64,000 nt of DNA from Escherichia phage vB_EcoM_AYO145A (KR014248); one strand, 5' to 3'; counted from the stretch's first letter, positions 1 to 58,230 are shown. Numbers and translations: made by a program. The notes: a model not told the origin generated them from the sequence alone.

Positions 1-2292
1 ATGACACCTGAAATGTTCAGCCTTCTGAGTTCTGGTGTATATACATTTAAAGAGCGAGCAGTGATTCGTGAACTGTCATGTAACGCAGTAGATGCTCAGA
101 AAGAAGCTGGAAAAGAGAACATCCCATTCCATGTGCATTTACCTACTCGTTTTGAGCCTTACTTCGAAGTTCGTGATTTTGGAACTGGATTGACTCATGA
201 TAAAGTTATGAGTTTGTATCTGAACTACGGAGCTTCTACGAAGAATGACTCTAATGATTACATTGGTGCAATGGGTATCGGCTCAAAGTCACCATTTGCA
301 ATTGCTCAGTCATTCACAGTATCTAGCTATGTTGATGGTGTTGTTAATAAGTACTCTGTTTATCTTGAGAATGGTATTCCTCAAGTAACTAAGCTGACAA
401 CTAACCCAACAAAAGAACCTAATGGTTTAGCTGTACGTGTGGCAGTTGCTGACCACCGTATCTCAAAGTTCTTTGAAGAAGCTGGGAATGTGTACTCATA
501 CTTTGCTGTAAAACCAGAAAGTAATATTGTGTACGACGATGTATTAGCAGATATGAACGTCATTGCCCGTGAAGAGGGTGTTTATGATGCCATGATTCAT
601 AAGCAAAGCTGGCGTTCTAGTGGTAACAGGACAGAATTTAATGTGGTGATGGGTAACATTGCCTACCCTGTTAACATGGAAGCATTACTTGGTGATGATT
701 TCTTCAAAATCTTGCCAGAATTTTTCCGTAGGAGCGTAGACCTTGTAAACATCTACATGCCTATTGGTTCAGTCGCTATTGCAGCTTCTCGTGAAGCATT
801 GCAGATGAATGACACGACAAAAAATGTCATCATTGAGGCTACCAAAAAGATAACTGAAGCAATTACAAGGGATGTTATTAAGGGAGTTAATAGCCAACCT
901 ACACTTATGGATGCTGCACAGGCTTATGCAGAGTTACGTTTGAACTCACGAGAGATGTTTAATGCTGTGTGTCCAAAGCTAGAGTGGGGAGGTGTTAAGC
1001 TTGACTCTCTGGAAGAAGAATTGTTAAACATTCGTCGTGGAATTATCTACGCAGAAGACGGCTCAGTCATCTATGAACGTGACGGCAAAGGTAATATTAA
1101 GGTTGACAGTAAAGGAAACAACATTCCTAAAGTGGACTACCTATACAATCCAGTTGCTTATGTTAAGTTCAACTCTTTAGAGAGTAAGATTCGTGCAACA
1201 GCACTTTCCTACACTCAAGAGGCGAGCATGTTCAATATCTTTGGTGCAATGCGTAAAAGCCAAATTGAACAGTTTTTGTTTGTGATTAATGACCGTCGCA
1301 ATAAAAACGGAACTGAGAAGACTGTAGGCCGCAATCAGATTCTGCGTGGTGCATGTCGAGACTACGCCAGTGAGTCAAGCCTGTTTCACAGATACAATGG
1401 TATTGTGTTTGTATTCTCGACTGAAAAAGAGTTAGATGACTTAATCAATCTGCACAAACTTGATAAAAGCTTGTTAAAGATTGTGAAAATGTCTGATAAG
1501 GAACACCATTACCAGCGTAAAGAAGCTGTAAGAGGTGTTGTAAAACTCTGGAAAGCTGTTCCAGCAGAAGGTGTAGCCTCCTACAAAGAGGTGTCAGAGG
1601 ACTTAGACACAATTGAAGAGTCTCAGCTTTATATTAAGGCAGTAGGTGACACAGTTGATGGTAGATGTTTTTGCTCATCTCCAGAGGATGTAGCTAAGTC
1701 AGTTGCTAATGTTATTGGGAAGACAGTCTATGTTTTCCGAAAAGCAAATTGGAAAAAGATACCAGAAGACTGGATTGAAGTAGATGAGAAGCTCTTGAAC
1801 GACAGCTTAACTGATGTTCATTGGATTAATCATAACAGGTATATGACACGCATCTACATGAATGGTGTTCTTGACCTTACAAGTAGCTGGATTATTGCCA
1901 GAAACTTTACATTCAATAATAGGAAGATTTCTCGTGGTTATTGCTATTCACGGGATACAAACAAAACTATCTTCCTAGAAGGTAATGAAGAGGCTGTAGA
2001 GGCAATGTTCGGTAAAATCCAATACGTTGCTGCACAGTTTGCATACACTTACACTATTAGTCGGTTGCAAACTTTGAAAGAGTGCCTTGACAATGATACA
2101 AAGCTGTACAAGAAAATTAAGAAAGCTGGTGACCGTATGGTTATTAAGGTGACAAACTACCTTTCAAAAAGAAAACAAGAAAACTTCTTGCTTTCTCATT
2201 TAGATTGGAATAAAGTGTCACCCATCGAAGTGAGTAAGTTCTTAGGCTTTGATGTGAAGTGTGTTCCAGAAGGGACTACAATTTACGATTAA
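1..2292 (+). CDS. rIIA: rIIA-like protein (GHKL-type ATPase fold); may be 5'-truncated at window edge
   Basis: 763-aa ORF starting at base 1; N-terminal GHKL-like boxes (ELSCNAVDA, DFGTGL, GIGSKSPF); followed by an rIIB-like gene. Confidence 0.75.
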   Translation: MTPEMFSLLSSGVYTFKERAVIRELSCNAVDAQKEAGKENIPFHVHLPTRFEPYFEVRDFGTGLTHDKVMSLYLNYGASTKNDSNDYIGAMGIGSKSPFAIAQSFTVSSYVDGVVNKYSVYLENGIPQVTKLTTNPTKEPNGLAVRVAVADHRISKFFEEAGNVYSYFAVKPESNIVYDDVLADMNVIAREEGVYDAMIHKQSWRSSGNRTEFNVVMGNIAYPVNMEALLGDDFFKILPEFFRRSVDLVNIYMPIGSVAIAASREALQMNDTTKNVIIEATKKITEAITRDVIKGVNSQPTLMDAAQAYAELRLNSREMFNAVCPKLEWGGVKLDSLEEELLNIRRGIIYAEDGSVIYERDGKGNIKVDSKGNNIPKVDYLYNPVAYVKFNSLESKIRATALSYTQEASMFNIFGAMRKSQIEQFLFVINDRRNKNGTEKTVGRNQILRGACRDYASESSLFHRYNGIVFVFSTEKELDDLINLHKLDKSLLKIVKMSDKEHHYQRKEAVRGVVKLWKAVPAEGVASYKEVSEDLDTIEESQLYIKAVGDTVDGRCFCSSPEDVAKSVANVIGKTVYVFRKANWKKIPEDWIEVDEKLLNDSLTDVHWINHNRYMTRIYMNGVLDLTSSWIIARNFTFNNRKISRGYCYSRDTNKTIFLEGNEEAVEAMFGKIQYVAAQFAYTYTISRLQTLKECLDNDTKLYKKIKKAGDRMVIKVTNYLSKRKQENFLLSHLDWNKVSPIEVSKFLGFDVKCVPEGTTIYD

Positions 2293-3481: not shown

Positions 3482-3499
3482 TAAGTAATTTCTTAAAAG

Positions 3500-3528
3500 G
3501 CTGCTTCGGCGGCCTTTTTATTTGTATT
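3500..3528 (+). terminator. rho-independent terminator
   Basis: AGGCTGCttcgGCGGCCT hairpin followed by TTTTTATTT, just after the rIIB stop. Confidence 0.6.
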
Positions 3529-3580
3529 TTGTGCAGAGTGCTGTATAATTGTTGTCACGATAAACTAAACAGGAGAACCA

Positions 3581-4129
3581 ATGAAGAAGTTGATTCTAGG
3601 TTTGTGCTTAATGTTTACAGCACACTTATCTTATGCAGTTGACTGCCCAGAGCTATCAATTAGCCAAAAAGTAAACATGTTAAAAGCTTACCAGTATGGT
3701 GAGAATAACATGGGCAAAGGTTGGGGTATCACTCTAGCTGCTATAGCCTTACAAGAGTCAGAGTTAGGTCTGAAGGTAGAGAATAAAAAGACACACGATT
3801 ATGGTATTTTCCAGAATCACTTGAAGACTGTTGTAAAGCGTAACAAAATTAGCCCTAATGTGGCTAAAAAGAAACTCTTAAGAGACTTTGATTATGCTGC
3901 GAAGGAAACTCACAAAGAGCTTGAGTTTTGGACGAAGGTACATGGTCAACCAAAGTCAAAGAAGACTTTACAAAAAGTTTTAGCATCATATAATGCTGGG
4001 TATTCGTACAAAATTCCTAAAGCTAAGAAATACTCTCAAGATGTCTATAACAATATGAAAGTTATTGCTCAATGTGAATTTGCAACAAACATTTCTAAGG
4101 TAAATCATGAAAAAATTAAGAAAGTCTGA
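3581..4129 (+). CDS. secreted lytic transglycosylase (SLT domain)
   Basis: N-terminal signal peptide MKKLILGLCLMFTAHLSYA; SLT motifs AIALQESELG (catalytic Glu-Ser) and SYNAGYSY. Confidence 0.6.
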   Translation: MKKLILGLCLMFTAHLSYAVDCPELSISQKVNMLKAYQYGENNMGKGWGITLAAIALQESELGLKVENKKTHDYGIFQNHLKTVVKRNKISPNVAKKKLLRDFDYAAKETHKELEFWTKVHGQPKSKKTLQKVLASYNAGYSYKIPKAKKYSQDVYNNMKVIAQCEFATNISKVNHEKIKKV

Positions 4130-7536: not shown

Positions 7537-8322
7537 ATGGGTATTGTAAAAATTATCAATGGTAATATCTTTGACGCATTTGATAAAGGTAAGTTTGACA
7601 TCATTGGTCATGGTTGCAACTGTATGAATTTCATGGGTGCAGGTATTGCAGCAACTATTTCTAAGCGTTATCCAAAAGTGTATGATACTGATACAGAAGT
7701 TTACCTGTTTGCAGGTGGCATTCGTCACAAACCCTGTGAAAATTTACTAGGTAATTTCTCTGTAGCACGTTTAAAACAAGGTCGTATAGCTAACCTTTAC
7801 ACCCAACTTCATACTGGTAAAGATGCCCGATACAGTGCTTTAGAGTCATCTTTGAAGCAGCTTAACAGATACTGTGAAGTCAATCAGTTGAAGAAAGTTG
7901 GGTTACCTATGATTGGTGCAGGTATCGGTGGGCTAGACCCTCAAGCCGTCACAGTTATCATCAATCAGGTGATGAAGAGTGTAGATGTTTATCTATATGT
8001 CTATGAAGGAGAGATGTACCACAAGTTACGCTCAGGTTGGAAGAACTACTGTGAACCAGAATACTTTGCAGGTGTAGTTGTGTTCACGGATAATGCAGTT
8101 ACCCTCTTCAGACGAAGAAAAGGTAAGATACATCAAAGTAACCCTCCGGTTGAAAAGATGTCTCTAAGTAACGCTCTAGTTACCCACCTGTCGAAGAGCA
8201 ATCACGGGATTGCAGTAACATTTGGCAGTGATGCAGATACTTACATCTATGCAAGAACTGATGAGGATATCGAGACAGTTTTCTCTTCGCCAGAAGTTAC
8301 CTTCTTAGACGCAAAGAACTAA
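7537..8322 (+). CDS. macro-domain protein (TARG1/OARD1/DarG-like ADP-ribose hydrolase)
   Basis: IIGHGCNCMNFMGAGIAATI and GLPMIGAGIGGLDP resemble the TARG1/DarG-type macro signature (H-C-x-x-C...MGAGIA, P-x-IGCG-x-D) as I recall it. Confidence 0.6.
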   Translation: MGIVKIINGNIFDAFDKGKFDIIGHGCNCMNFMGAGIAATISKRYPKVYDTDTEVYLFAGGIRHKPCENLLGNFSVARLKQGRIANLYTQLHTGKDARYSALESSLKQLNRYCEVNQLKKVGLPMIGAGIGGLDPQAVTVIINQVMKSVDVYLYVYEGEMYHKLRSGWKNYCEPEYFAGVVVFTDNAVTLFRRRKGKIHQSNPPVEKMSLSNALVTHLSKSNHGIAVTFGSDADTYIYARTDEDIETVFSSPEVTFLDAKN

Positions 8323-8351
8323 GAAACTTCGTAGGATATTCACAATAGACT

Positions 8352-8398
8352 AAGCCTTTCTTATCTGGTAAATTTTTCAGGTAAGGAGGGCTTTTTCA
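8352..8398 (+). terminator. imperfect hairpin plus T-run
   Basis: AGCCTTTCTTATCTGG ... CAGGTAAGGAGGGCT followed by TTTTT. Confidence 0.4.
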
Positions 8399-8590
8399 TT
8401 TCAGAATTGTGCAGGTATATTTCTATAGAGAAATCTGTAGAGAAAATTTTGAACTCCAAAGAGAAAATTCATTTTCAAACTGTGCAGGTAATCTCCAAAG
8501 ACCTTTTTCATTTTCAAAACGTGCAGAGAAAAATCAGGTCGGGCAAGAAAAATCATTTTAGAATTGTGCAGGTAGGTGGGTGCAGGTGGG
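8397..8590 (+). repeat. four direct repeats CATTTTCARAAYTGTGCAGGTA
   Basis: copies at about 8397, 8470, 8509, 8554, plus GGTGGGTGCAGGTGGGG; non-coding. Confidence 0.6.
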
Positions 8591-8750
8591 GATGTCGCCA
8601 TTTCTCACAAGGCTACCACATCTGAAAAGAAAAGTCAACAGAAAAATTTGTAGCGGATTGAAAAATAATTCTTGATTGTAGTTCTGTTTTGTGGTAGTCG
8701 CGCGCACCCGTTTCATTACAATCTTTGCAAAAATATTTTTAAAATTTTTC

Positions 8751-8779
8751 TTGACTCTTTGAACGGGGTTATCTAGTAT
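8751..8779 (+). promoter_or_regulatory. sigma70-like promoter (TTGACT-N17-TAGTAT)
   Basis: upstream of the first small-ORF cassette. Confidence 0.45.
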
Positions 8780-8842
8780 TTGCATCAACGGGGAGGGAAT
8801 GACCTTCCCCACTAAATAAAGTCCTAAACTGGAGATTCAAAA

Positions 8843-9223
8843 ATGAAATACCGTGCACCTAAATTCATCAACAAAGACAACTTTCGCAACGCACTGGAGA
8901 AGTCACTTGATGAAAATTTTAAAGGTAATGTTATTGTTGTTCACTCGTTTAATTTTAAGTATGATGTAAACGGGAATAGAATCAACCATTACACGGCAAC
9001 CATGTTAGATGGTACACTTTCAAGTGAAAAAGCCATTTTACATGCACTTGCAGGACGTGGTAAAAACCTGATAAGATGCGATAAGAGACGTTATCAGGGT
9101 GGCGCATATGGTTATGATGATGCTGTTTATCATCTTGAAAATATGGGCTATTCAGTGGAAAAAGCTGGAGTGTCTCAAATAATCGGCAGTGACGGCTATG
9201 TGACAATTTTCAAAATTAACTGA
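8843..9223 (+). CDS. hypothetical small protein (leader-cassette gene 1)
   Basis: 126-aa ORF with type A leader. Confidence 0.6.
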   Translation: MKYRAPKFINKDNFRNALEKSLDENFKGNVIVVHSFNFKYDVNGNRINHYTATMLDGTLSSEKAILHALAGRGKNLIRCDKRRYQGGAYGYDDAVYHLENMGYSVEKAGVSQIIGSDGYVTIFKIN

Positions 9224-11738: not shown

Positions 11739-11838
11739 AAATTTTTGTTGACACTGGTTTTTAGATAGGCTAAATTGCACATCAACGGGGAGGGAATGAC
11801 CTTCCCACTAAATAAAGTCCTAAACTGGAGATTCTAAA

Positions 11839-12988: not shown

Positions 12989-13078
12989 ACAAGCCTGATA
13001 AAAATCTGTAAATTGTCAATCAACGGGGAGGGAATAACCTTCCCCACTAAATAAAGTCCTAAACTGGAGAATCTAAAA

Positions 13079-14170: not shown

Positions 14171-14236
14171 ATTGTCAATCAACGGGGAGGGAATAACCTT
14201 CCCCACTAAATAAAGTCCTAAACTGGAGTTATCAAG

Positions 14237-14565: not shown

Positions 14566-14814
14566 ATGGCAACTATCCGCGCAATTGTAAATTCTTATGG
14601 CTGCTACACTCTGGACGTTAAATTTGATATCGGTGGAACTGATGAATGTTTTTCATTAGTGAAGACAGTTATCAAACAAGTTATCCCAGATTATAACCCT
14701 ACTGATGACTTCTGGAAAGATGCAGTAAAAGAGGCGTTGAACGATGAATATCATTACCATTATTGGGGTGATTTGATTGTCTCCCTGTACTACAATAAAC
14801 AAGGTTACAACTAA
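14566..14814 (+). CDS. hypothetical small protein (cassette gene 14)
   Basis: 82-aa ORF with type A-variant leader. Confidence 0.6.
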   Translation: MATIRAIVNSYGCYTLDVKFDIGGTDECFSLVKTVIKQVIPDYNPTDDFWKDAVKEALNDEYHYHYWGDLIVSLYYNKQGYN

Positions 14815-14852
14815 TCGACGCAACGGGGCTAAATAGCCCCAGATACCTTTAT

Positions 14853-14879
14853 AGCCCCTTTCTCATAGGGGCTTTTTTA
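14853..14879 (+). terminator. rho-independent terminator closing the small-gene array
   Basis: AGCCCCtttctcatAGGGGCT followed by TTTTTT. Confidence 0.7.
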
Positions 14880-14880
14880 C

Positions 14881-16470
14881 GTCTATCCAATCCTTATACA
14901 ATCCCTTTCCCTTTCCTTTCCAGAATCTTATCAGACCTTAAAAGCAATAACTCTATAGTCCACTCTATAACCTTTTATCAAATCAACTTAAATATAAGCC
15001 CATAACCCGAAAGGGAAGGGCAACCATTTAAACGCTCTATAAAGCTCTATAACAGCCTTATCAACCTAACTTAAGGGATTGCATTAACTCACCCTAAAAA
15101 GCTCTTTATAAAGCTTCCTAGAGCCTTAAAAGAATCTTATAAGGGTGTAAGCTTTATCATCTCGTTAGTTCCTTGTGAACTACTAAAAAGGGCTTGTTAG
15201 TGTCTTAAAAGTATGTTATAGGGGCTATAAAGTTACTTCAAAGTTACGTAAAAGAGGCTATAAAGTTACGTAAATGCTAGCCCCCTTAACATTCTCTTAA
15301 CAAATTCTTAACAATCCCTACATAGTTATGCTTGCTAGAGACTTGTTAGCCCCTTGTTAAATCTCTGTTAAAACCACGTAAAAGCCTTGTAAGAGTCTTT
15401 GACATAGCCTTTAAAGCTCCTGTAAAGCCCTATAAAAAGGTATCTGTACAGTTGGGGTGTAATTACTAGGAAGAGGTTTAAGAGAGCTTACAAAGAGCTA
15501 TAGAGAGCTTTTAAGAGGTATGTTTAGAGAATCACTAAGAAAGAGAGGGAACGATAAGAAAGAGATAGTGACCATGTTAATAGCTTGTTAAAAAGATTAA
15601 ATACTTGTTAGAAACTTGTTAATTATCTTAACAAAATAACTCTTAAAAATTAACTTGTTAGCTCTTGTTAGTCATCTGTTAAGCCTCTGTAAAGACTATG
15701 TATTGACTGTTAAGAACTTGTTACAGCCTTGTTAGTTCTGTTAAGAATCTGTTAAGACCTCTGAAGAGATGTTAAGAGCTTGAGAGAGTTGTTAAGAGAT
15801 TGTTAAGGATATTTTAAAATTCTGCAAAGGGGGTGTTACAGGGATGTTAAGGGCTACCAAGCAGATATACATCTTCTACAGATATTTTTGAGTTCCTTCA
15901 AAGACCCTAAAAAATGACTTGATAGTCCTATTTTATAAAAATTTTAAAATTCTGAATAATTACCTATACAGTCTTTTAAAAATACAGGTAGAAACAGGCT
16001 TATAAGATACCTTGTTAGTACCGTGTTAGACCTTGTGAGATAAGGTCTGTAAAGATATTCCTGTTAAGTTTGTTAAAACAGTCTATATAGAGGCTTAGTA
16101 ATACCTAGTGAACACCTATAGAGAGTGTCATAGCTGACATAGAGATTAAGAGGTGTATAGGAGCTTCTAAGAGGGTGTAGAGGAATGGTTAAGGTGATTG
16201 TATAGGTTGTTAAGAGGGCTTGTTAGAAGAGTGTTTAGAAGGGTTATACAGAGGGGCTATTAAGACCACTAGATAGTTACTAAGATACTATATAGTACTA
16301 TATAACTATATAGAGAGTAAGATTAAGAAGGTTGTTAAGAAGGATAGATATTTTGTTCACATATGATGGTGACCCAGAGGTTGGGACAACCGATGAAATT
16401 TTATAAAAAATATAAATTTCGTAAATTTTACTCAATAAAAAGCCCCCAATTAAGGAGGCTCTTAAGATAT
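14881..16470. repeat. 1.6-kb non-coding region with about 30 short YTTGTTAR / GTTAAGAG repeats and AT-rich tracts
   Basis: no ORF of 60 aa or more on either strand; many CTTGTTAG/CTGTTAAG/GTTAAGAG copies; duplicated CTATAAAGTTACGTAAA; AT-rich blocks near 15900 and 16400. Confidence 0.7.
16436..16466 (-). terminator. rho-independent terminator (minus strand)
   Basis: reverse complement reads AGCCTCCttaattGGGGGCT followed by TTTTTATT, just downstream of the 16472 gene end. Confidence 0.5.
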
Positions 16471-21589: not shown

Positions 21590-22722
21590 TATGCCTCCCC
21601 TGCTGGGTTAACTGTAACTGTTGCCGCATTAGATGTTACAGAGCCACCTGCACCAGTAACTACACAGGTGTAGCTTCCTGCGTCAGCAGTGATTGCACCT
21701 TCTTTGGTGTAAGTTGCAGTAGTTGCGTCTAGGATGTTTTCCTCACCCTTCTTCCACTGATAACCTGTCGCACCAGTAGCCACAACACTTAGTGTCAAGG
21801 TATCACCTTCAGTGATTTCTTGATTGGTTGGCTGCTGAGTGATTACCGGAAGTGCATTCACAGTAACTGTTGCAGGGTTAGAAGTAACAGAACCACCTGC
21901 ACCTGTTACAACGCAAGTGTATGAACCTGCATCTGCTGGCAGTGCACCAGACTTGCTATAGGTAGCGTTTGTAGCTGAAGGGATGTCAGAGCCATCTTTC
22001 TTCCACTGGTAACCTGTTGCACCTGTTGCAGTCACTGATAGACTGATGTTTCCACCTTCATTAATGGTATGGCTAGAAGGTTGCTGTGTAATCACAGGCA
22101 GTGCGTTCACAGTCACTGTTGCTGCATCTGAGGTAACACTTGTTCCACCCTCTCCAGAGACAACACAAGTGTATGAACCAGCGTCAGAAGGTGCTACTGA
22201 CTGTTTTGTGTAAGTTGCAGAATTGGCACTAGGGATATCCTCACCATCCTTCTTCCACTGATATCCAGTGGCGTTAGTTGCTAGAATGCTTAGAGTAAGT
22301 GTGCCACCCTCATTGACTGTTTGACCTGTTGGTTGCTGAGTAATTGCTGGTGGCTTAATAGCATCCTTCAACTTAGCATTCAACATTGAGAACGGCTTAA
22401 CTCTTGCCAACCATTCACAGTAAATTGTGTCAACATCTTTACCATTGATGATTGCATACTGCAAATCCATGAAGAAATCAGCAGTTCTCATCTGTGCACC
22501 AACACTGTAAAGGAGTTCATCACTAAAAGGAACTTTGTAGTCTGGTTTGTAGTCAAACTTCTTAACTTCTGCAATATCAGCTTCAGGCCAATACGAGCTA
22601 TAGGTGAGTGGTAAAATAGCCTCTTGATATGTTCTAAAGTCATATCTCTTACCAGCTTTTACATTTGCAATGAAGCCCTTCACAAACTCTTTGAAGTCTG
22701 GGTAAGTCTTTGCTTTAATCAT
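21589..22722 (-). CDS. protein with three tandem Ig-like domains
   Basis: 377 aa; N-terminal domain paralogous to the next gene; three near-identical repeats of about 83 aa (PVITQQP...GATGYQWKKDG...DAGSYTCVV.GAGGSVTSN.ATVTVNA). Confidence 0.7.
   Translation of the reverse strand: MIKAKTYPDFKEFVKGFIANVKAGKRYDFRTYQEAILPLTYSSYWPEADIAEVKKFDYKPDYKVPFSDELLYSVGAQMRTADFFMDLQYAIINGKDVDTIYCEWLARVKPFSMLNAKLKDAIKPPAITQQPTGQTVNEGGTLTLSILATNATGYQWKKDGEDIPSANSATYTKQSVAPSDAGSYTCVVSGEGGTSVTSDAATVTVNALPVITQQPSSHTINEGGNISLSVTATGATGYQWKKDGSDIPSATNATYSKSGALPADAGSYTCVVTGAGGSVTSNPATVTVNALPVITQQPTNQEITEGDTLTLSVVATGATGYQWKKGEENILDATTATYTKEGAITADAGSYTCVVTGAGGSVTSNAATVTVNPAGEA
21592..22350 (-). repeat. three tandem repeats of about 250 bp encoding Ig-like domains
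   Basis: seen at protein level inside the 21589..22722 CDS. Confidence 0.7.
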
Positions 22723-26381: not shown

Positions 26382-26458
26382 CTCTGTTTAGCTCAGCTTG
26401 GTAGAGCGTTCCGTTTGGGGCGGTAAGGCCGGAGGTTCAAGTCCTCCAACAGAGACCA
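26382..26458 (+). tRNA. tRNA-Pro(TGG)
   Basis: cloverleaf by eye; anticodon loop TTTGGGG; D- and T-arms close to E. coli tRNA-Pro; CCA encoded. Confidence 0.75.
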
Positions 26459-26465
26459 AATTAAT

Positions 26466-26543
26466 GTTCCAGTAGACAAAATGGTAAAGTCACCACTCTT
26501 TCAAAGTGGATATTTGAGGGTTCAAATCCCTTCTGGAACGCCA
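26466..26543 (+). tRNA. tRNA-Glu(TTC)
   Basis: acceptor GTTCCAG/CTGGAAC; anticodon loop CTTTCAA; T-loop TTCAAAT; CCA. Confidence 0.7.
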
Positions 26544-26550
26544 GTTTTGA

Positions 26551-26623
26551 CAGAAGACCAATTACAGCAAACTTAATCTTATTCATCTGACACGAAATCG
26601 GACAAAGAAGAGATTTGGTCTGG
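26551..26623 (+). ncRNA. structured spacer RNA candidate (CAGAAGACC...GGTCTGG family, copy 1)
   Basis: 5' CAGAAGACCA and 3' TGGTCTGG form the terminal helix; shared internal CAGCAA box. Confidence 0.3.
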
Positions 26624-26634
26624 TCATTAAGAAT

Positions 26635-26711
26635 TGCGGGTATAGAGAAAGGGCGTCTCACATGTCTCATTAGCATGGTATCGGCAGGTTCGACTCCTGC
26701 ACCCGCCTCCA
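26635..26711 (+). tRNA. tRNA-Met(CAT), or Ile2/fMet
   Basis: anticodon loop CTCATTA; T-arm GCAGGttcgactCCTGC; CCA. Confidence 0.55.
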
Positions 26712-26717
26712 ATTTTG

Positions 26718-26777
26718 CAGAAGACCGTATGCAGCAATAAACTACTTTTTGCGGATAAAAGAAAAAACACGGTCTGG
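26718..26777 (+). ncRNA. structured spacer RNA candidate (same family, copy 2)
   Basis: CAGAAGACCG ... CGGTCTGG; compensatory G:C where copy 1 has A:T. Confidence 0.3.
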
Positions 26778-26788
26778 CAATGTATTAA

Positions 26789-26865
26789 GGTTAGGAAGCA
26801 CATAAGGTATGTGCGGTCGCCTGTTAAGCGAATGGCACAGGGTTCGAATCCCTGACTAACCGCCA
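26789..26865 (+). tRNA. tRNA-Asn(GTT)
   Basis: anticodon loop CTGTTAA; T-arm CAGGGttcgaatCCCTG; CCA. Confidence 0.65.
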
Positions 26866-26874
26866 AATTTAAAT

Positions 26875-26962
26875 GTGTCGTTATCCCGTAGATGGTAGCG
26901 GTGGGGACTGTAAATCCCTTGTCATTGAGACTCGGTAGGTTCGACTCCTACACGGCACACCA
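26875..26962 (+). tRNA. tRNA-Tyr(GTA)
   Basis: 88 nt with long variable arm; anticodon loop CTGTAAA; CCA. Confidence 0.7.
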
Positions 26963-26968
26963 AATAAA

Positions 26969-27046
26969 GGTTATGTAGTTTAATCTGGTTAAAATACTCC
27001 CCTGTCACGGGAGATGATGAGGGTTCAAATCCCTTCGTAACCGCCA
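26969..27046 (+). tRNA. tRNA-Asp(GTC)
   Basis: anticodon stem CTCCC/GGGAG, loop CTGTCAC; CCA. Confidence 0.75.
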
Positions 27047-27133
27047 AATTATAATAAGTATTCCAAGATGATGTTTTGAGAGGGCTATTTAGCCCCTCCC
27101 TTAAAGAGTTCTTACGAGTATTCTTTAAAGGAG

Positions 27134-27210
27134 CAGAAGACCAAATTCAGCAAGTACGTATGATATTTTCAAGCCAATTTAATTTTGAAAAAATTTAAAA
27201 CTTGGTCTGG
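27134..27210 (+). ncRNA. structured spacer RNA candidate (same family, copy 3)
   Basis: CAGAAGACCAA ... TTGGTCTGG. Confidence 0.3.
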
Positions 27211-27223
27211 CTCAACAAATTTA

Positions 27224-27355
27224 CAGAAGACCGTTTACAGCAAAACTTAAACAATCTATTTCTCCGGTAAAGAAAAGGCGAAGGTTCGATTCCTTCACTC
27301 GGCAGATGTCGAGTTGGTGTAATGGTAGCACTTAAGATGATAAACAACGGTCTGG
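27224..27355 (+). ncRNA. Y-RNA-like RNA candidate (YrlA-type, permuted tRNA-like module)
   Basis: terminal helix AGACCGT/ACGGTCT; inside, T-arm GAAGGttcgattCCTTC, then ACTCGGC-agat-GTCGAGT acceptor-like hairpin, then TG and D-arm GTGTaatggtaGCAC; about 1 kb downstream of the Ro60-like gene. Confidence 0.45.
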
Positions 27356-27357
27356 TA

Positions 27358-27500
27358 ATTATCTTTGTAGATAAGTTATTAAGCTTACCTGTGAGTATGC
27401 GACCACAAAGGGTGAAAGGGTAAATTCTAGATTTAAACCCAACAAGGCACATCGCTACAGACCTTAAGCAAGTCTGGGTAGCTTATCTACAAAGATAATT
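27358..27500 (+). ncRNA. structured RNA candidate closed by a perfect 19-bp inverted repeat
   Basis: AATTATCTTTGTAGATAAG (27358-27376) is the exact reverse complement of CTTATCTACAAAGATAATT (27482-27500); internal CAGACcttaagcaaGTCTG hairpin. Confidence 0.35.
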
Positions 27501-27505
27501 TTAAT

Positions 27506-27581
27506 GGAAGTGTAGCAGAATGGTGATGCGGCAGACTTTTAATCTGACAGGCGATGGGTTCGAATCCCTCCACTTCTACCA
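27506..27581 (+). tRNA. tRNA-Lys(TTT)
   Basis: anticodon loop CTTTTAA; T-loop TTCGAAT; CCA. Confidence 0.65.
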
Positions 27582-27585
27582 ATAT

Positions 27586-27662
27586 GGTTCAGTCGCAGAT
27601 AAGGTAATGCAGGGGTCTCATAAGCCCTATGAATGTGGGTTCGATTCCCATCTGAACCTCCA
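27586..27662 (+). tRNA. tRNA-Met/Ile(CAT)
   Basis: acceptor GGTTCAG/CTGAACC; anticodon loop CTCATAA; CCA. Confidence 0.65.
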
Positions 27663-27663
27663 A

Positions 27664-27739
27664 GCTGGTATAGTTAAGAAGGTTATAACACTCCCCTGAT
27701 AAGGGAACATCGGTGGTTCGATTCCACCTACCAGTACCA
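27664..27739 (+). tRNA. tRNA-Ile(GAT)
   Basis: D-stem GTTA/TAAC; anticodon loop CTGATAA; T-arm GGTGGttcgattCCACC; CCA. Confidence 0.65.
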
Positions 27740-27754
27740 ATTTCAATAAAGTTG

Positions 27755-27783
27755 TTGACATTGAGATGTGACTACTTTATAGT
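27755..27783 (+). promoter_or_regulatory. sigma70-like promoter (TTGACA-N17-TATAGT)
   Basis: internal promoter inside the tRNA island. Confidence 0.5.
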
Positions 27784-27987
27784 AACCTTAGTTTTCGTTG
27801 CGTAGCGTCTATTTTGCAAATTTAAAATAAATGCAAACGACAATGTTTTTCTGGCAGTAGCTTGATAGGCTAAACACCAGTGAGGTCTTCCAATCCCTCA
27901 TCAAAGAATTTGGCGTACTCGCCCACGGTATGATTAATAAGGTGGGCATCTTTAAGGGCTTTCTAAGAGAGTCTTTAAAGATAATTA

Positions 27988-28069
27988 CGGGGCGTATCTC
28001 AGCGGTCTTCTAAACCGCCGTTAACCGAGTAAGTGGAGTATGCGGGTTCGAGTCCTGCCGCCTCGACCA
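27988..28069 (+). tRNA. tRNA-like, possibly Arg(TCT); non-canonical D region
   Basis: good acceptor (CGGGGCG/CGCCTCG), T-arm and CCA; GCGGTcttctaaACCGC fits an anticodon arm but leaves no room for a normal D-arm. Confidence 0.35.
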
Positions 28070-28211
28070 AATAGTTAGCAGATTACTTAGACGGTCTTAG
28101 CGGGTCTTCCTGTAGGGAGGTGGTCTGTATCTCATGTTTTCCAGAACATGTAAATAATCTGAGAAGGGGCTTTACAGTGTTGAGATAATACGGTAAGCTT
28201 CGAATTATAGT

Positions 28212-28294
28212 GTGGGACGATGTTAAGACTCTAAGGCATGAGCAACGGCTTCCAACACCGTTTCAAAGGGGTTCAACTCCTCCGTCCCATGCCA
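28212..28294 (+). tRNA. tRNA-like, possibly Trp(CCA); enlarged D region or anticodon loop
   Basis: acceptor GTGGGAC/GTCCCAT, T-loop TTCAACT, CCA; AACGG-cttccaaca-CCGTT contains CCA in a 7- or 9-nt loop. Confidence 0.35.
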
Positions 28295-28307
28295 AAGTCT
28301 TATTAGG

Positions 28308-28395
28308 GGTAGGTAGCGGCTAATGGTAGCCAAACTGTCTTGAAAACAGTTGCCACTGTAGAGATACGGTGAGGGTTCGACTCCTTTACTTACCG
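28308..28395 (+). tRNA. tRNA-Ser(TGA)
   Basis: class II: anticodon stem ACTGT/ACAGT, loop CTTGAAA, long variable arm; 3' CCA not encoded (GCCT). Confidence 0.65.
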
Positions 28396-28652
28396 CCTAA
28401 TAAGATTTAAAGCCAAGCTTCATTCGGATGTTGCTTTGGTATACCGCGTGTATTGTTGTACGCACTGATAAAGCACCTAGTAGGTGTCACGGAGAAGAGA
28501 TAATATCAAGCTCTCCAAAGGTTCTAGTCACCGGATTAAACAAGACTATGCAAAGACCTTTTTAGGTCTTTTTAGAGGGCTTCTAAGGTTATTACAGCTT
28601 GTTGTGGAACCTTGTTGCTTAGGTTCTTAGAAGTTCTCTAAAAAGACTTAAT

Positions 28653-28730
28653 GGGAGATTGACGGTAATTGGTAAACCTATCTCGCTTAGAACGAGATGT
28701 TTGAGGGTTCGAATCCCTTGTCTCCTACCA
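28653..28730 (+). tRNA. tRNA with anticodon TAG (Leu by anticodon; class-I-like shape)
   Basis: anticodon stem TCTCG/CGAGA, loop CTTAGAA; T-loop TTCGAAT; CCA; short variable loop. Confidence 0.5.
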
Positions 28731-28737
28731 AATTAAT

Positions 28738-28813
28738 GCAGGTGTAGCAAAATGGTTATGCGGCTGACTCTTAATCAGTAAGACGATGGGTTCAATTCCC
28801 TCCACCTGTACCA
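28738..28813 (+). tRNA. tRNA-Lys(CTT), tentative
   Basis: acceptor GCAGGTG/CACCTGT; anticodon loop CTCTTAA; weak T-stem; CCA. Confidence 0.5.
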
Positions 28814-28819
28814 AACAAT

Positions 28820-28895
28820 GGGGATGTAGTTTACATGGTTAAAACATAAGTTTTGCAAACTTAAGTACAGGGTTCAATTCCCTGCTTCTCCACCA
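28820..28895 (+). tRNA. tRNA-Ala(TGC)
   Basis: anticodon stem TAAGT/ACTTA, loop TTTGCAA; T-arm CAGGGttcaattCCCTG; CCA. Confidence 0.65.
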
Positions 28896-28901
28896 ATTAG
28901 T

Positions 28902-28976
28902 GCATCCATAGTTTAAACGGGAAAATTACAGTCTTCCAAACTGAGGTTGAGGGTTCGATTCCCTCTGGATGCTCCA
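28902..28976 (+). tRNA. tRNA-Gly(TCC)
   Basis: acceptor GCATCCA/TGGATGC; anticodon loop CTTCCAA; CCA. Confidence 0.7.
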
Positions 28977-28982
28977 AACAAT

Positions 28983-29059
28983 GCTGCTTTCGTATAATTG
29001 GCTATTACACATCCCTTGTAAGGATGGAAATGCAGGTTCGAGTCCTGTGAGCAGCACCA
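28983..29059 (+). tRNA. tRNA-Thr(TGT)
   Basis: anticodon stem CATCC/GGATG, loop CTTGTAA; CCA. Confidence 0.7.
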
Positions 29060-29062
29060 ATT

Positions 29063-29150
29063 CAGAGGTCAAGTGAAAGACCGCTTTGAGTCAACTGAAG
29101 ACCGTAACAAATTCCACGGAGTTGAGTTAGCGGCACAACTCCAGACCTCT
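29063..29150 (+). ncRNA. structured spacer element
   Basis: outer helix AGAGGTC/GACCTCT enclosing GGAGTTGagttagcggcaCAACTCC hairpin and a GAAGACCG box. Confidence 0.25.
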
Positions 29151-29155
29151 TTCAT

Positions 29156-29230
29156 ACTCGCTTAGTTTATATGGTAAAACATCACCCTTACAAGATGAAG
29201 AAAAAGGTTCAAGCCCTTTAGTGAGTACCA
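29156..29230 (+). tRNA. tRNA-Val(TAC)
   Basis: D-stem GTTT/AAAC; anticodon loop CTTACAA; CCA. Confidence 0.65.
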
Positions 29231-29231
29231 T

Positions 29232-29309
29232 GTTCCAGTATCCCAATTGGCAGAGGATGCAAGCTCAAACCTTGTATTAGTGACGGTTCGAATCCGTCTT
29301 GGAACACCA
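29232..29309 (+). tRNA. tRNA with anticodon CAA (Leu by anticodon)
   Basis: anticodon stem GCAAG/CTTGT, loop CTCAAAC; T-arm GACGGttcgaatCCGTC; CCA. Confidence 0.55.
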
Positions 29310-29314
29310 ATTTT

Positions 29315-29390
29315 GCAGGATTAGTTCAAATGGAAAGAGCAACAGTCTACGAAGCTGTTAATAGGGGTTCGAATCCCTTATCCTGCGCCA
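29315..29390 (+). tRNA. tRNA-Arg(ACG)
   Basis: acceptor GCAGGAT/ATCCTGC; anticodon loop CTACGAA; CCA. Confidence 0.7.
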
Positions 29391-29409
29391 ATTTAAAGAG
29401 GCTATTTAG

Positions 29410-29967
29410 ATGAGATATTTGAAGTATGCTTCATGGATTTTCTTAGCTTTGTTAGAGCCATTTGCAGCAATCTTAGCAGTTATCTTAGCACCTTTCGTAG
29501 TTCCATTCTACAGTGAGAAGAAAGGCCACTTACCTTTCGGATTTAGATGGATGGAGACCTATGACAACCCGATTGATGGTGATGAAGGCCACGTTAAAAG
29601 ATGGGCTAAGATTAGAAAGATTGGTAAGCTCGGTGTTTATATGCAGAGAGTTGGATGGCTCTGGAGAAACAAAGCTTATAACTTCTCTTACCATGTATTA
29701 GGAAGAGATGTAAAAGATGTTACTAAGTGGAAAGGTAATATCAACGTAAGTTCTAACCCTGAAGATAATCAGACAGGTTATCTCCTAATGTGGAACAGTA
29801 ATGCTTGGGGATTATTTGCTTTTATCCCATCTATTAAAGTCTTTGGTAAACAATTCTACTGGAGAATTTATGTTGGGTGGAAACTAAAAAGTGTTGTCCC
29901 AGAAGAAAGAGCATTCTCAAGGGAAAGAGTTATGTTGGCATTCTTTATTCATCCACTAAGAAAATAA
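29410..29967 (+). CDS. hypothetical membrane protein embedded in the tRNA island
   Basis: 185-aa ORF with N-terminal hydrophobic segment; flanked by tRNAs. Confidence 0.5.
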   Translation: MRYLKYASWIFLALLEPFAAILAVILAPFVVPFYSEKKGHLPFGFRWMETYDNPIDGDEGHVKRWAKIRKIGKLGVYMQRVGWLWRNKAYNFSYHVLGRDVKDVTKWKGNINVSSNPEDNQTGYLLMWNSNAWGLFAFIPSIKVFGKQFYWRIYVGWKLKSVVPEERAFSRERVMLAFFIHPLRK

Positions 29968-29975
29968 AGATTTAA

Positions 29976-30051
29976 AGGGGATTAGTTTACAAGGTTAAAA
30001 CCTCGGTCTTTGAAATCGAAGAAGTTGGTTCAATTCCAACATCCCCCGCCA
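29976..30051 (+). tRNA. tRNA-Gln(TTG)
   Basis: anticodon stem TCGGT/ATCGA, loop CTTTGAA; T-arm GTTGGttcaattCCAAC; CCA. Confidence 0.65.
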
Positions 30052-30053
30052 AT

Positions 30054-30132
30054 GCTCCATTACTCCAATTGGCAGAGAGGCCAGACTTAAAATCTGTGTT
30101 ATGTATCGGTTCGAATCCGATATGGAGTACCA
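30054..30132 (+). tRNA. tRNA with anticodon TAA (Leu by anticodon)
   Basis: anticodon loop CTTAAAA; T-arm ATCGGttcgaatCCGAT; CCA; 7-nt variable loop. Confidence 0.55.
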
Positions 30133-30137
30133 AATTT

Positions 30138-30213
30138 AGCGGTATAGCATAACTGGCAATGCAACAGTCTCTGAAGCTGTCCTATTAAGGTTCAAATCCT
30201 TATGCCGCTGCCA
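30138..30213 (+). tRNA. tRNA-Gln(CTG)
   Basis: anticodon loop CTCTGAA; T-arm TAAGGttcaaatCCTTA; CCA. Confidence 0.65.
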
Positions 30214-30244
30214 CTTCTAAGGGTTCTTACGAGAGTCCTTAAAT

Positions 30245-30320
30245 GTGGCCTTATCATAAAAGGTAATGACCCATGCTGTGAACATGGTCTATACGGGTTC
30301 AAATCCCGTAGGTCACCCCA
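30245..30320 (+). tRNA. tRNA-His(GTG)
   Basis: anticodon stem CCATG/CATGG, loop CTGTGAA; CCA. Confidence 0.7.
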
Positions 30321-30326
30321 ATTTAT

Positions 30327-30402
30327 AGTCCAAGTAGCTTATATGGTTAAAGCGCGTGTCTGAAAAACATGAGAAGAGGGTTCAAATCCCACTGGACTAC
30401 CA
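30327..30402 (+). tRNA. tRNA-Phe(GAA)
   Basis: D-stem GCTT/AAGC; anticodon loop CTGAAAA; T-loop TTCAAAT; CCA. Confidence 0.65.
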
Positions 30403-30418
30403 ATTTCAAAGGTGCTTA

Positions 30419-31153
30419 ATGAAAGAGATGACAGAACAAGGTAAGGAGATTTTTAATCTCTTAAAAACCGGTAAAGGGTTCTCTAACCCGCTTATTACTG
30501 GTGCAGCAGTTCTCGGTGGAACCGTAGCTGCTTCTACATCACTTGTAAGCTCTATTAGTTCTGTAACAGACCCTACAATGAAGGAGAAACTTGTTGCTGC
30601 TGGACTTACAACAGTCCTTTTAAACAGCTTTACAACAAGCCTTACAAGCACTACAGCAACTACTAAGACCCTAACAGACTACGGTCAAAAGTCTATTGAT
30701 GAGTTTTCATCACGTATGCAGGTAGCAAAGGGATACTCCAATGTTATGGGTGCAGTAGGAGAACAAGTTGGTTGTACACCATTCAGTGGTATTATGGGTG
30801 TTGCTACAGAGTATGGTCAAAAAGCTATTGACACAATTAACAGTGCACTAGACGGTGTTAATGATGTATTAAGTGACTTACAAGATGCTATTGATAAAGG
30901 TCTTGATACTGTTTCTGATTTAGCTAACCAAGCTGTTAGTAAGATTAATGAAGGTATCTCAAAGATTACAGCTTATGCAGATGAAGTTGTGCAGATGATT
31001 GAAGAAGAAGCTGCCCTTATTGCAGAGTACCTTAAAACAAATATCAATGGGTTCTTAGCAGGTATCTTACCAGACTGGTTTGATGATGCTTGTAAAACTG
31101 GTGTGATTGATACTATTGCAACACCAGAAATGAAGAACGCATTACAGAAATAA
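30419..31153 (+). CDS. hypothetical Ser/Thr/Ala-rich protein
   Basis: the ORF-track start at 30356 lies inside tRNA-Phe; first ATG after the tRNA is 30419; low-complexity N-terminal half. Confidence 0.5.
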   Translation: MKEMTEQGKEIFNLLKTGKGFSNPLITGAAVLGGTVAASTSLVSSISSVTDPTMKEKLVAAGLTTVLLNSFTTSLTSTTATTKTLTDYGQKSIDEFSSRMQVAKGYSNVMGAVGEQVGCTPFSGIMGVATEYGQKAIDTINSALDGVNDVLSDLQDAIDKGLDTVSDLANQAVSKINEGISKITAYADEVVQMIEEEAALIAEYLKTNINGFLAGILPDWFDDACKTGVIDTIATPEMKNALQK

Positions 31154-31154
31154 T

Positions 31155-31247
31155 GGAAGATTAACCCTAAAAGGTAAGGGAGCAGTTTGCTAAACTGCCA
31201 GTAGCTGAGAAATCGGTGTACCAGTTCAAGTCTGGTATCTTCCTCCA
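31155..31247 (+). tRNA. tRNA-Ser(GCT)
   Basis: class II, 93 nt: acceptor GGAAGAT/ATCTTCC, anticodon stem GCAGT/ACTGC, loop TTGCTAA, long variable arm; CCA. Confidence 0.65.
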
Positions 31248-31251
31248 ATTT

Positions 31252-31327
31252 GAATCCGTGACAGAAATGGCTATGTGCCTGTCTGCAAAACAGGTTTATA
31301 AGGGTTCGAGTCCCTTCGGATTCTCCA
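31252..31327 (+). tRNA. tRNA-Cys(GCA)
   Basis: acceptor GAATCCG/CGGATTC; anticodon stem CCTGT/ACAGG, loop CTGCAAA; CCA. Confidence 0.7.
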
Positions 31328-57900: not shown

Positions 57901-58230
57901 TTAGTCTGCCAACCTTAAATTGAAATTAACACCAAATTTTTCACATACTTCCAACATAAACTCAAGAGAGACATTACCAGTGAGATTGATTATGTTGGAT
58001 ACACGAGCCTGAGATATACCACAAATTTTAGCAACTTGCTCTTGAGAAAGACCTCTGGATTTAATCTCTCTCTTAAAACGATGTGCAACGAAGTCTCTCA
58101 TTTCGTCTACATCCATTGGACAAATATAACTCTCCATTTCAGCCTCTCTATCAGCCTCCCAATCATCTTGTGGGGCATAAGGGTCAAAAACCTCATTCAT
58201 CTTTCTTCTTCCGTTTGCGTGAAGTGTCAA
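57901..58230 (-). CDS. HTH (XRE-like) DNA-binding protein
   Basis: 109 aa; C-terminal GLSQEQVAKICGISQARVSNIIN helix-turn-helix. Confidence 0.55.
   Translation of the reverse strand: MTLHANGRRKMNEVFDPYAPQDDWEADREAEMESYICPMDVDEMRDFVAHRFKREIKSRGLSQEQVAKICGISQARVSNIINLTGNVSLEFMLEVCEKFGVNFNLRLAD

Follow-up and report, generated by a model that had tools for sequence, protein, structure and literature searches.

The window analysed here is the first 64 kb (64,000 nucleotides) of the genome of a Felix O1-like myophage (Felixounavirus), beginning at the ATG of rIIA (ORF 1..2292). Records of Felix O1-type phages customarily open just 5' of this gene (PMC3185647). A 520-bp gap separates the gene at 7537..8322, which encodes a Pfam Macro domain and carries the label 'phosphatase' in many records, from the first of a series of small genes (8843..9223). 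This gap contains an array of four direct repeats, hereafter called boxes (Table 1). The first-pass annotation had placed four such repeats near 8397, 8470, 8509 and 8554, upstream of the small-gene array. A repeat search recovered all of them, each one nucleotide further 5', with none expected by chance, and all precede the first small gene. The stretch 8200-8900 is matched by 230 phage records at 80-99% identity, nearly all of them Felixounavirus of Escherichia, Salmonella and Shigella.

Table 1. Features of the box array and its surroundings in the window; box sequences as listed include a leading T.
Feature	Position	Strand	Basis or remark
Fifth box TTATTTGTATTTTGTGCAGAGT	3518..3539	+	bipartite pattern match
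Predicted intrinsic terminator of the macro-domain gene	8352..8393	+	17-bp stem; terminator scan
Box 1 TCATTTCAGAATTGTGCAGGTA	8396..8417	+	repeat search; matrix 27.1 bits
Box 2 TCATTTTCAAACTGTGCAGGTA	8469..8490	+	repeat search; matrix 29.1 bits
Box 3 TCATTTTCAAAACGTGCAGAGA, CGTGCA variant	8508..8529	+	repeat search; matrix 26.1 bits
Box 4 TCATTTTAGAATTGTGCAGGTA	8553..8574	+	repeat search; matrix 28.7 bits
Variable tail separating the array from the conserved promoter block	8575..8630		G-rich allele GGTGGGTGCAGGTGGGG... here
Conserved block	8631..8700	+	degenerate fifth unit AAAAATTTGTAGCGGA, A/T-rich tract, TTGATT-N17-TAGTCG; identity 0.77-1.0
Predicted sigma-70-type promoter P2, TTGACT-17-TAGTAT	8751..8779	+	present in all aligned relatives

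All four boxes lie on the same strand, with start-to-start spacings of 73, 39 and 45 bp. When a degenerate 22-mer was searched with up to three mismatches, its three matches were all boxes and none occurred elsewhere in the 64 kb (0.00 in shuffled sequences). The bipartite pattern TYATTT-N7-GTGCA gave five matches in the window against 0.21 expected, whereas the short 3' core TGTGCAGGTA alone, with at most one mismatch, was found seven times against 4.2 expected, which is not significant. A motif search across the whole genome had been proposed as a check on the repeats. We scanned a 19-nt scoring matrix over the window together with the 60-86 kb part of VSe11, and over the complete genome of Erwinia phage phiEa21-4. 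Scores of the four array sites ranged from 26 to 29 bits in the window and from 22 to 29 bits in phiEa21-4, and the next-best matches reached at most 17 bits, within the maxima of shuffled sequences. The array is thus a single locus, to which only the bare bipartite pattern adds one further site, at 3518-3535.

The core of each box reads TCATTT-N7-GTGCA, and its 7-nt gap is fixed in 12 of 12 aligned units from three genera. The first half-site reads TTATTT in one of these units, and the N7 between the half-sites is variable in sequence and A/T-rich. The half-sites start 13 bp apart, about one helical turn, without dyad symmetry between them. Each box belongs to a longer repeat unit (roughly 38-45 bp): the flanks GAACTCCAAAG... 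and GGTCGGGCAAGAAAAA are conserved too, and in the window TGAACTCCAAAGAGAAAAT (8451-8468) precedes box 2 and AGGTCGGGCAAGAAAAA (8536-8552) precedes box 4. Box 3 has a degenerate 3' end, CGTGCAGAGA. Two tandem 12-mers, TCTATAGAGAAA and TCTGTAGAGAAA, occupy 8422-8445 between boxes 1 and 2, and a related TTTGTAGCGGA lies at 8648-8658; they may be remnants of a box unit or else members of another, weaker repeat family.

On its left the array adjoins the terminator of the macro-domain gene, described as Felix O1 t13 with a dG of -21.8 kcal/mol (PMC3185647 Table 2). The T-tract of this terminator, TTTTTCATTT, runs into box 1 and forms its start, and Felix O1 terminator t5 ends with the same kind of tail, CCTTTTTCATTTCAG. 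On its right the array is followed by a variable tail. The repeats had been described as ending in GGTGGGTGCAGGTGGGG. This sequence is present, at 8575-8591, but it belongs to one of two unrelated tail alleles and lies outside the conserved element. Felix O1 and most relatives carry instead a C-rich allele with five minus-strand G-runs that is prone to form quadruplexes, and tail identity to relatives with the other allele is 0.38-0.45. An inversion of the C-rich allele is not supported as the source of the G-rich tail, which scores -4.5 in forward and -7.0 in reverse orientation against a shuffle maximum of -3.5. Four IMG/VR contigs (L112, L113, L118 and L120) stop 45-160 bp past box 4, and the Andreotti GenBank record MN850610 (L034) stops past box 4 as well, with a fold-back inverted repeat; these are probably assembly breaks at a heterogeneous or hard-to-sequence spot.

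Beyond the tail, TTGATT-N17-TAGTCG in the conserved block is a possible promoter, P1, whose -10 element is non-canonical and which was not among the calls of the promoter scan. The predicted promoter P2 would drive the first small gene. Between P2 and this gene lies a cassette consisting of a hairpin GGGGAGGGAATGACCTTCCCC, then ACTAAATAAAGTCCTAAACTGGAG and an ATG, which occurs in four near-exact copies before small genes (8783-8842, ~11780-11838, ~13020-13078 and ~14178-14236; none expected).

The fifth match to the bipartite pattern lies directly after the rIIB terminator (3495-3518, called by the terminator scan) and overlaps the -35/spacer of a candidate promoter, TTGTAT-N16-TATAAT (3522-3549), 5' of the SLT-like gene 3581..4129. 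A GTGCAG box near 3533, before the SLT gene, had been pointed out in the first-pass annotation; it is part of this fifth box, which has been retained in other genera. Felix-like contigs, Michonne (Mooglevirus) and the contig L037 keep the terminator, TGTGCAG and TGTATAAT at this position, while the N7 varies (GTATTTT, GTGATTT or GAAAAAT), as does the 3' flank. TGTGCAG is therein a conserved island within a variable spacer in three genera. The fifth box is absent in phiEa21-4, its matrix score is only 11.6 bits, and its candidate promoter was not called by the simple promoter scan. We regard it as moderate evidence.

Conservation of the array reaches well beyond the genus and takes in all branches of the Felix O1 subfamily. 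In an exact-pattern scan of IMG/VR the motif was found in Felix-like contigs of 84-90 kb; three other contigs (L007, L008 and L017) had unrelated single matches inside a gene. Four-box arrays occupy the same syntenic spot, between the macro-domain gene and the small genes, in four further lineages: Citrobacter phage KMM2 (Mooglevirus; spacing 75/41/45, macro protein 65% identical), SUSP1 (Suspvirus; 75/41/45), Erwinia phage phiEa21-4 (Kolesnikvirus; 37/37/39, boxes TCATTTTCAATTTGTGCATAGG, macro protein 34% identical) and the contig L047, a very distant relative that shares 37% identity in the macro protein and 41% in the SLT-like protein, and whose DNA cannot be aligned to the window. Box 1 follows a terminator in all lineages checked but L047, which has no evident one.

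The boxes are retained where the surrounding DNA has diverged. When 8340-8720 was compared with Erwinia phages by sensitive blastn, only positions 129-231 of the query (boxes 2-4) still matched. Against Mooglevirus and Suspvirus, identity is 0.78-0.89 in the boxes and 0.77-0.83 in the block 8631-8700, compared with 0.58-0.61 in the adjacent coding DNA, 0.41 in spacer 3 and 0.42-0.45 in the tail. Individual units are orthologous across genera: Felix unit 4, AGGTCGGGCAAGAAAAATCATTTTAGAATTGTGCAGGTA, has its counterpart in phiEa21-4 unit 3, AGGTCTGGCAAGAAAAATCATTTTCGATTTGTGCATAGA, the likeness extending over the 39-nt unit of box 4, and the CGTGCA variant of box 3 is shared by the orthologous phiEa21-4 unit, which also reads AAAATCGTGCA. 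Natural variants with three boxes, without box 2, are found in L006 and phiWec177. Mosaic junctions lie inside or beside the array; in L006, L033 and L054 the left part has diverged and box 2 is lost, boxes 3-4 are 100% identical, and the tail alleles swap independently. These comparisons show strong purifying selection on the array as DNA, and among the non-coding elements found in the early region none is better conserved.

Among remoter macro-domain relatives the box motif is absent (L130-L149), and no array of any kind follows the macro-domain gene in Pakpunavirus B55, L130-L134, L136, L137 and L140. IMG/VR matches outside Ounavirinae (L036, L039-L045, L048, L049 and L052) proved to be coding repeats, in frame and rich in Ser/Ala. 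One environmental contig, L038, from a pelagiphage-like podovirus, carries two 50-bp units with AATCATTTTAACATAGTGCAGTG (reverse complement, 3880-4060) just 5' of a TTGTCA-17-TATAAT promoter. Its box is 18/21 identical to box 4, a likeness that we attribute to chance since both phage and host are unrelated. No bacterial-chromosome counterpart could be assigned either, as the paired motif gave 43 matches in the genomes of 185,579 species, none of them in Enterobacterales.

The array is non-coding, as the first-pass annotation had proposed. Although it is spanned by possible small ORFs of 50-72 codons, no frame is kept between genera because the unit spacing changes from 73/39/45 to 75/41/45 and 37/37/39. 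Some records annotate 'hypothetical protein' CDSs of 31-50 codons across the array (OR863361, L101 at 8270-8637, and others), which we consider spurious since their frame is not conserved between genera. The array is not a structured RNA either: folding was no better than in shuffled sequences on either strand (z = +0.12, +1.44 and +0.90), and a search of the whole window against Rfam returned tRNAs only, with no match at the array. The 25 tRNA genes cluster at 26382-31327, which is usual for Felix O1-like phages, and an additional weak Rfam tRNA match covers 27988-28066. Located between a terminator and a conserved promoter, the array is probably little transcribed.

Sites for known factors were equally unrewarding, as the searches for IHF, Fis, CRP, LexA, sigma-E, sigma-54 and Chi returned nothing shared by the three genera. 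The extended unit resembles a sigma-E promoter (GAACT ... TCAAA), but it has a spacer of 18 nt, two more than the 16 nt of sigma-E promoters, and a scan with the 16-nt spacer gave no match in the window or in Moogle. In the test for sigma-70 hexamers 16-18 bp apart only box 1 matched, overlapping a weak TTTTCA-17-TATATT (8393-8421, 9/12), and boxes 2-4 have no -10 in a fixed register.

The array is also distinct from the end of the virion DNA. Felixounavirus genomes have direct terminal repeats (DTR) of 581-618 bp (PMC6454146, PMC8303462, PMC11350853). The published 618-bp DTR of UAB_69 maps to 14626-15243 of the UAB_69 genome opened at rIIA. Its homologue in the window lies at about 15278-15860, 6.7 kb downstream of the array, and a genome terminus or pac site at the boxes was rejected on this ground. 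This homologue is inside a 1.6-kb non-coding region (14870-16440) between convergent gene blocks, packed with repeats of the CTTGTTAA/G type, several of them 11 bp apart. It is this region, and not the box array, that we predict to be the physical genome end. The last box is about 7.3 kb from the end of the DTR homologue. The SeKF_63 record includes both terminal copies of the DTR, and there 7.2 kb separate the end of the last box from the right-hand repeat. All the genes between the array and the right end are small and evolve fast; they have sigma-70-like promoters, and their transcription runs toward the right end. A single Chi site, GCTGGTGG, occurs in the 64 kb, at 22346 (+), and none near the right-end early region; its scarcity is relevant only because Felix O1-like phages reportedly have no RecBCD inhibitor.

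Among 82 small or unassigned ORFs, the sole recognisable sequence-specific DNA-binding domain is the Cro/C1-type domain (E = 5e-11) of a 109-residue HTH_3 protein encoded at 57904..58230 (-). It has no detectable homologue in phiEa21-4, which makes it an unlikely ligand. The C-terminal half of the macro-domain protein is an unlikely ligand as well, since Felix and phiEa21-4 have little of its sequence in common. Neither these 82 ORFs nor the annotated replication module contained a recognisable Rep-like or initiator family, although an initiator of unrecognised fold is conceivable. That the motif stays constant while phage proteins fall to about 35% identity hints at a host factor or at a very constrained phage protein.

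Our preferred interpretation, which we advance as tentative, is that the array may be a cis-acting protein-binding element that controls or insulates early transcription. Iterated protein-binding sites, for a regulator or as origin iterons, had been suggested in the first-pass annotation, and this suggestion agrees best with conserved, unstructured, single-locus islands in at least four genera, the binding itself being putative. The boxes would be sites, all in the same orientation, for one sequence-specific DNA-binding protein acting at the DNA level, each site consisting of the invariant half-sites TCATTT and GTGCA inside the longer unit. The array marks the border between a conserved rightward operon, from rIIA to the macro-domain gene and its strong terminator, and the hypervariable small genes with host sigma-70 promoters that occupy the final ~7 kb of the virion DNA on the right. 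Bound protein could hold a multi-protein complex there and thereby insulate or repress the early promoter region. At the fifth box, the same protein would sit on the -35/spacer of a promoter restarting transcription after the rIIB terminator.

We favour transcription control because the fifth box sits on a promoter core, because box 1 overlaps a weak promoter-like site, and because the array is tied to a terminator and a promoter block. Against it, boxes 2-4 lie clear of any promoter. The interval between the last box and the canonical promoter that follows it also differs, being ~100-180 bp in Felix and Moogle and ~205-220 bp in phiEa21-4 and L047, and direct contact with RNA polymerase is therefore unlikely. 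That a protein from host or phage binds here and affects transcription is what we infer from the sequence.

The main rival to this regulatory reading is a replication origin, which we consider unlikely but worth keeping in mind. The boxes would then be iterons for an initiator, either phage-encoded or host DnaA, and the adjacent A/T-rich promoter region would open for loading of the T7-like primase-helicase and the family-A polymerase. A single locus with four same-orientation sites of ~20 bp, A/T-rich tracts and a strong promoter just 3' of it, and conservation deeper than that of the neighbouring genes are all consistent with an origin. However, the spacing of 37-45 and 73 bp departs from the classical iteron register of ~22 bp, no initiator-like gene is recognisable, and GC skew (the only proxy) is unchanged at 8.4 kb. 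The replisome is T7-like, and T7 initiation is primed by transcription, without iterons. A fifth box on a promoter 5 kb away is not expected at an origin either.

DnaA itself, which would suit an origin, fits one lineage only. All four phiEa21-4 boxes contain CTATGCACA or TTATGCACG, which match the DnaA box TTWTNCACA at 8/9 positions, and one L047 unit reads GTGGATAGG, varying at the N position of the DnaA box. In contrast, with up to one mismatch none of the four boxes matched in the window and none of the four in Moogle; the window boxes read ACCTGCACA, and Felix and Moogle boxes reach just 6/9 even though the host DnaA is essentially the same. DnaA would also leave the invariant TCATTT half unexplained, and we rejected it as a general ligand.

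A checkpoint in DNA entry is a more speculative proposal, and we regard it as a long shot. Here the right-hand ~8% of the genome, with its sigma-70-driven 'takeover' genes, would enter first, and a host or early phage protein on the boxes would pause transfer until early proteins act. The geometry is suggestive: in SeKF_63, 7.8 kb (8.6% of its 90,390 bp) separate the last box from the physical end on the right, T5 transfers 7.9% first, and conservation falls off sharply, as in T5, from the non-coding repeats to the small ORFs toward the end. The DnaA-like boxes of the Erwinia lineage also recall the T5 injection stop signal, which has DnaA boxes. However, the array has neither the large inverted repeats and palindromes of T5 nor its DnaA boxes in pairs 3 bp apart, the small genes are not enclosed in a 10-kb repeat but stand apart from a short DTR, and the fifth box at 3518 is left with no role. 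We know of no evidence for two-step injection, or for a leading end, in Felix O1-like phages. If true, this proposal would extend the two-step transfer of T5 to an unrelated subfamily of phages whose terminal repeat measures only ~600 bp.

We give little credence to the notion that the boxes are an evolutionary by-product, that is, tandem duplicates of the terminator tail (TTTTTCATTT...) that stay alike because they serve as a recombination linker bordering a hypervariable region, and that bind nothing. It would explain why the 5' half of the units matches a generic post-terminator sequence, as at the end of t5 (CCTTTTTCATTTCAG), why mosaic junctions lie in or next to the array with tail alleles swapping independently, and why three-box variants are viable. 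However, neutral duplicates would decay, whereas the half-sites and their 7-nt gap are invariant where the flanking DNA cannot be aligned, and single units are orthologous between genera.

Reiterated unusual promoters, for a modified or phage-directed RNA polymerase, had been the other suggestion for these repeats and did not survive the scans; we now hold them to be very improbable. In their favour, a TAnnnT hexamer follows box 1 in most Felix and Moogle variants, box 1 scores 9/12 as a sigma-70 site, and the box at 3518 lies within a promoter. However, neither whole-genome scan (the window with VSe11 60-86 kb, and all of phiEa21-4) gave more than one locus, so that the motif is absent 5' of every other gene cluster, as a dispersed phage promoter would not be. 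Boxes 2-4 lack a -10 in register, the registers of box 1 and the 3518 box differ by 6 nt, and promoter-like matches on the minus strand of phiEa21-4 vanish in Felix, where the unit spacing differs. Least credible of all is a transcribed element that would encode a small protein or act through four modules as a structured RNA or an RNA sponge: ORFs of 50-72 codons and the tiny CDSs of some GenBank records can be cited for it, but the frame is broken, folding equals that of shuffles, Rfam gives no match, and the array is placed past a strong terminator but before the promoters.

In the literature that we searched there was no description of this array, and a full-text search for the box sequences gave no phage paper. 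The searched literature also held nothing relevant on transcript maps of Felix O1 or on protein binding in the array region. The Felix O1 genome paper gives the terminator and other direct repeats, not these boxes (PMC3185647), and the Felix O1 RefSeq record has no feature at the array, as is the case in most other records checked.

Felix O1 and its relatives are classic phages for typing Salmonella and are widely used in biocontrol and therapy cocktails. Transcription timing and the start of replication were explicitly left open in the Felix O1 genome paper (PMC3185647). In this respect the array offers a concrete handle, as a 200-bp probe could fish out a regulator, an initiator or a host factor. 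Felix O1 can be rebooted from PCR fragments (PMC10933291), and the array is a region that genome engineers should not disturb unknowingly. The tiny 'hypothetical proteins' that some annotation pipelines call over it should be regarded as spurious.

Compared with known systems, the array shares with the iterons of lambda ori, P1, F, R6K and RK2 four direct, asymmetric, same-orientation sites of ~20 bp at one locus, beside A/T-rich DNA and better conserved than their surroundings. It differs from them in spacing (37-45 and 73 bp here, ~22 bp in iterons), in that no cognate initiator gene was found here, in its T7-like replisome, in the extra box on a distant promoter, and in showing no skew or other origin signature. 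The injection stop signal of T5 is Repeat Region 3 of the first-step-transfer DNA (Davison, bioRxiv 10.1101/866236). Like that signal, the array is a non-coding repeat cluster that borders small early genes on their inner side, ~8% from a genome end, is better conserved than those genes and has DnaA-box-like sequences in one lineage. Unlike it, the array has no large inverted repeats, palindromes or paired DnaA boxes and is not part of a long terminal repeat.

In T4-type phages, promoter-early stem-loop (PeSL) cassettes shuffle small genes in a hyperplastic region. The PeSL likeness is seen in the promoter/hairpin/ribosome-binding-site cassettes of the small genes, at 8783-8842 and elsewhere, and not in the four boxes, which have no hairpin and no promoter and occur once. 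Operator and upstream clusters, such as the p4 sites of phi29, lambda OL/OR and the Fis sites at rrn P1, differ from the array in that its repeats are asymmetric and direct rather than dyads, stand at a distance from the promoter that is not conserved (100-220 bp) and fit no known consensus. Still, like these clusters, the array groups its sites upstream of strong predicted sigma-70 promoters, and at the fifth box one site overlaps a promoter core. It is thus reasonable to think that the array is a so far undescribed case of a familiar class, that of clustered direct-repeat putative binding sites.
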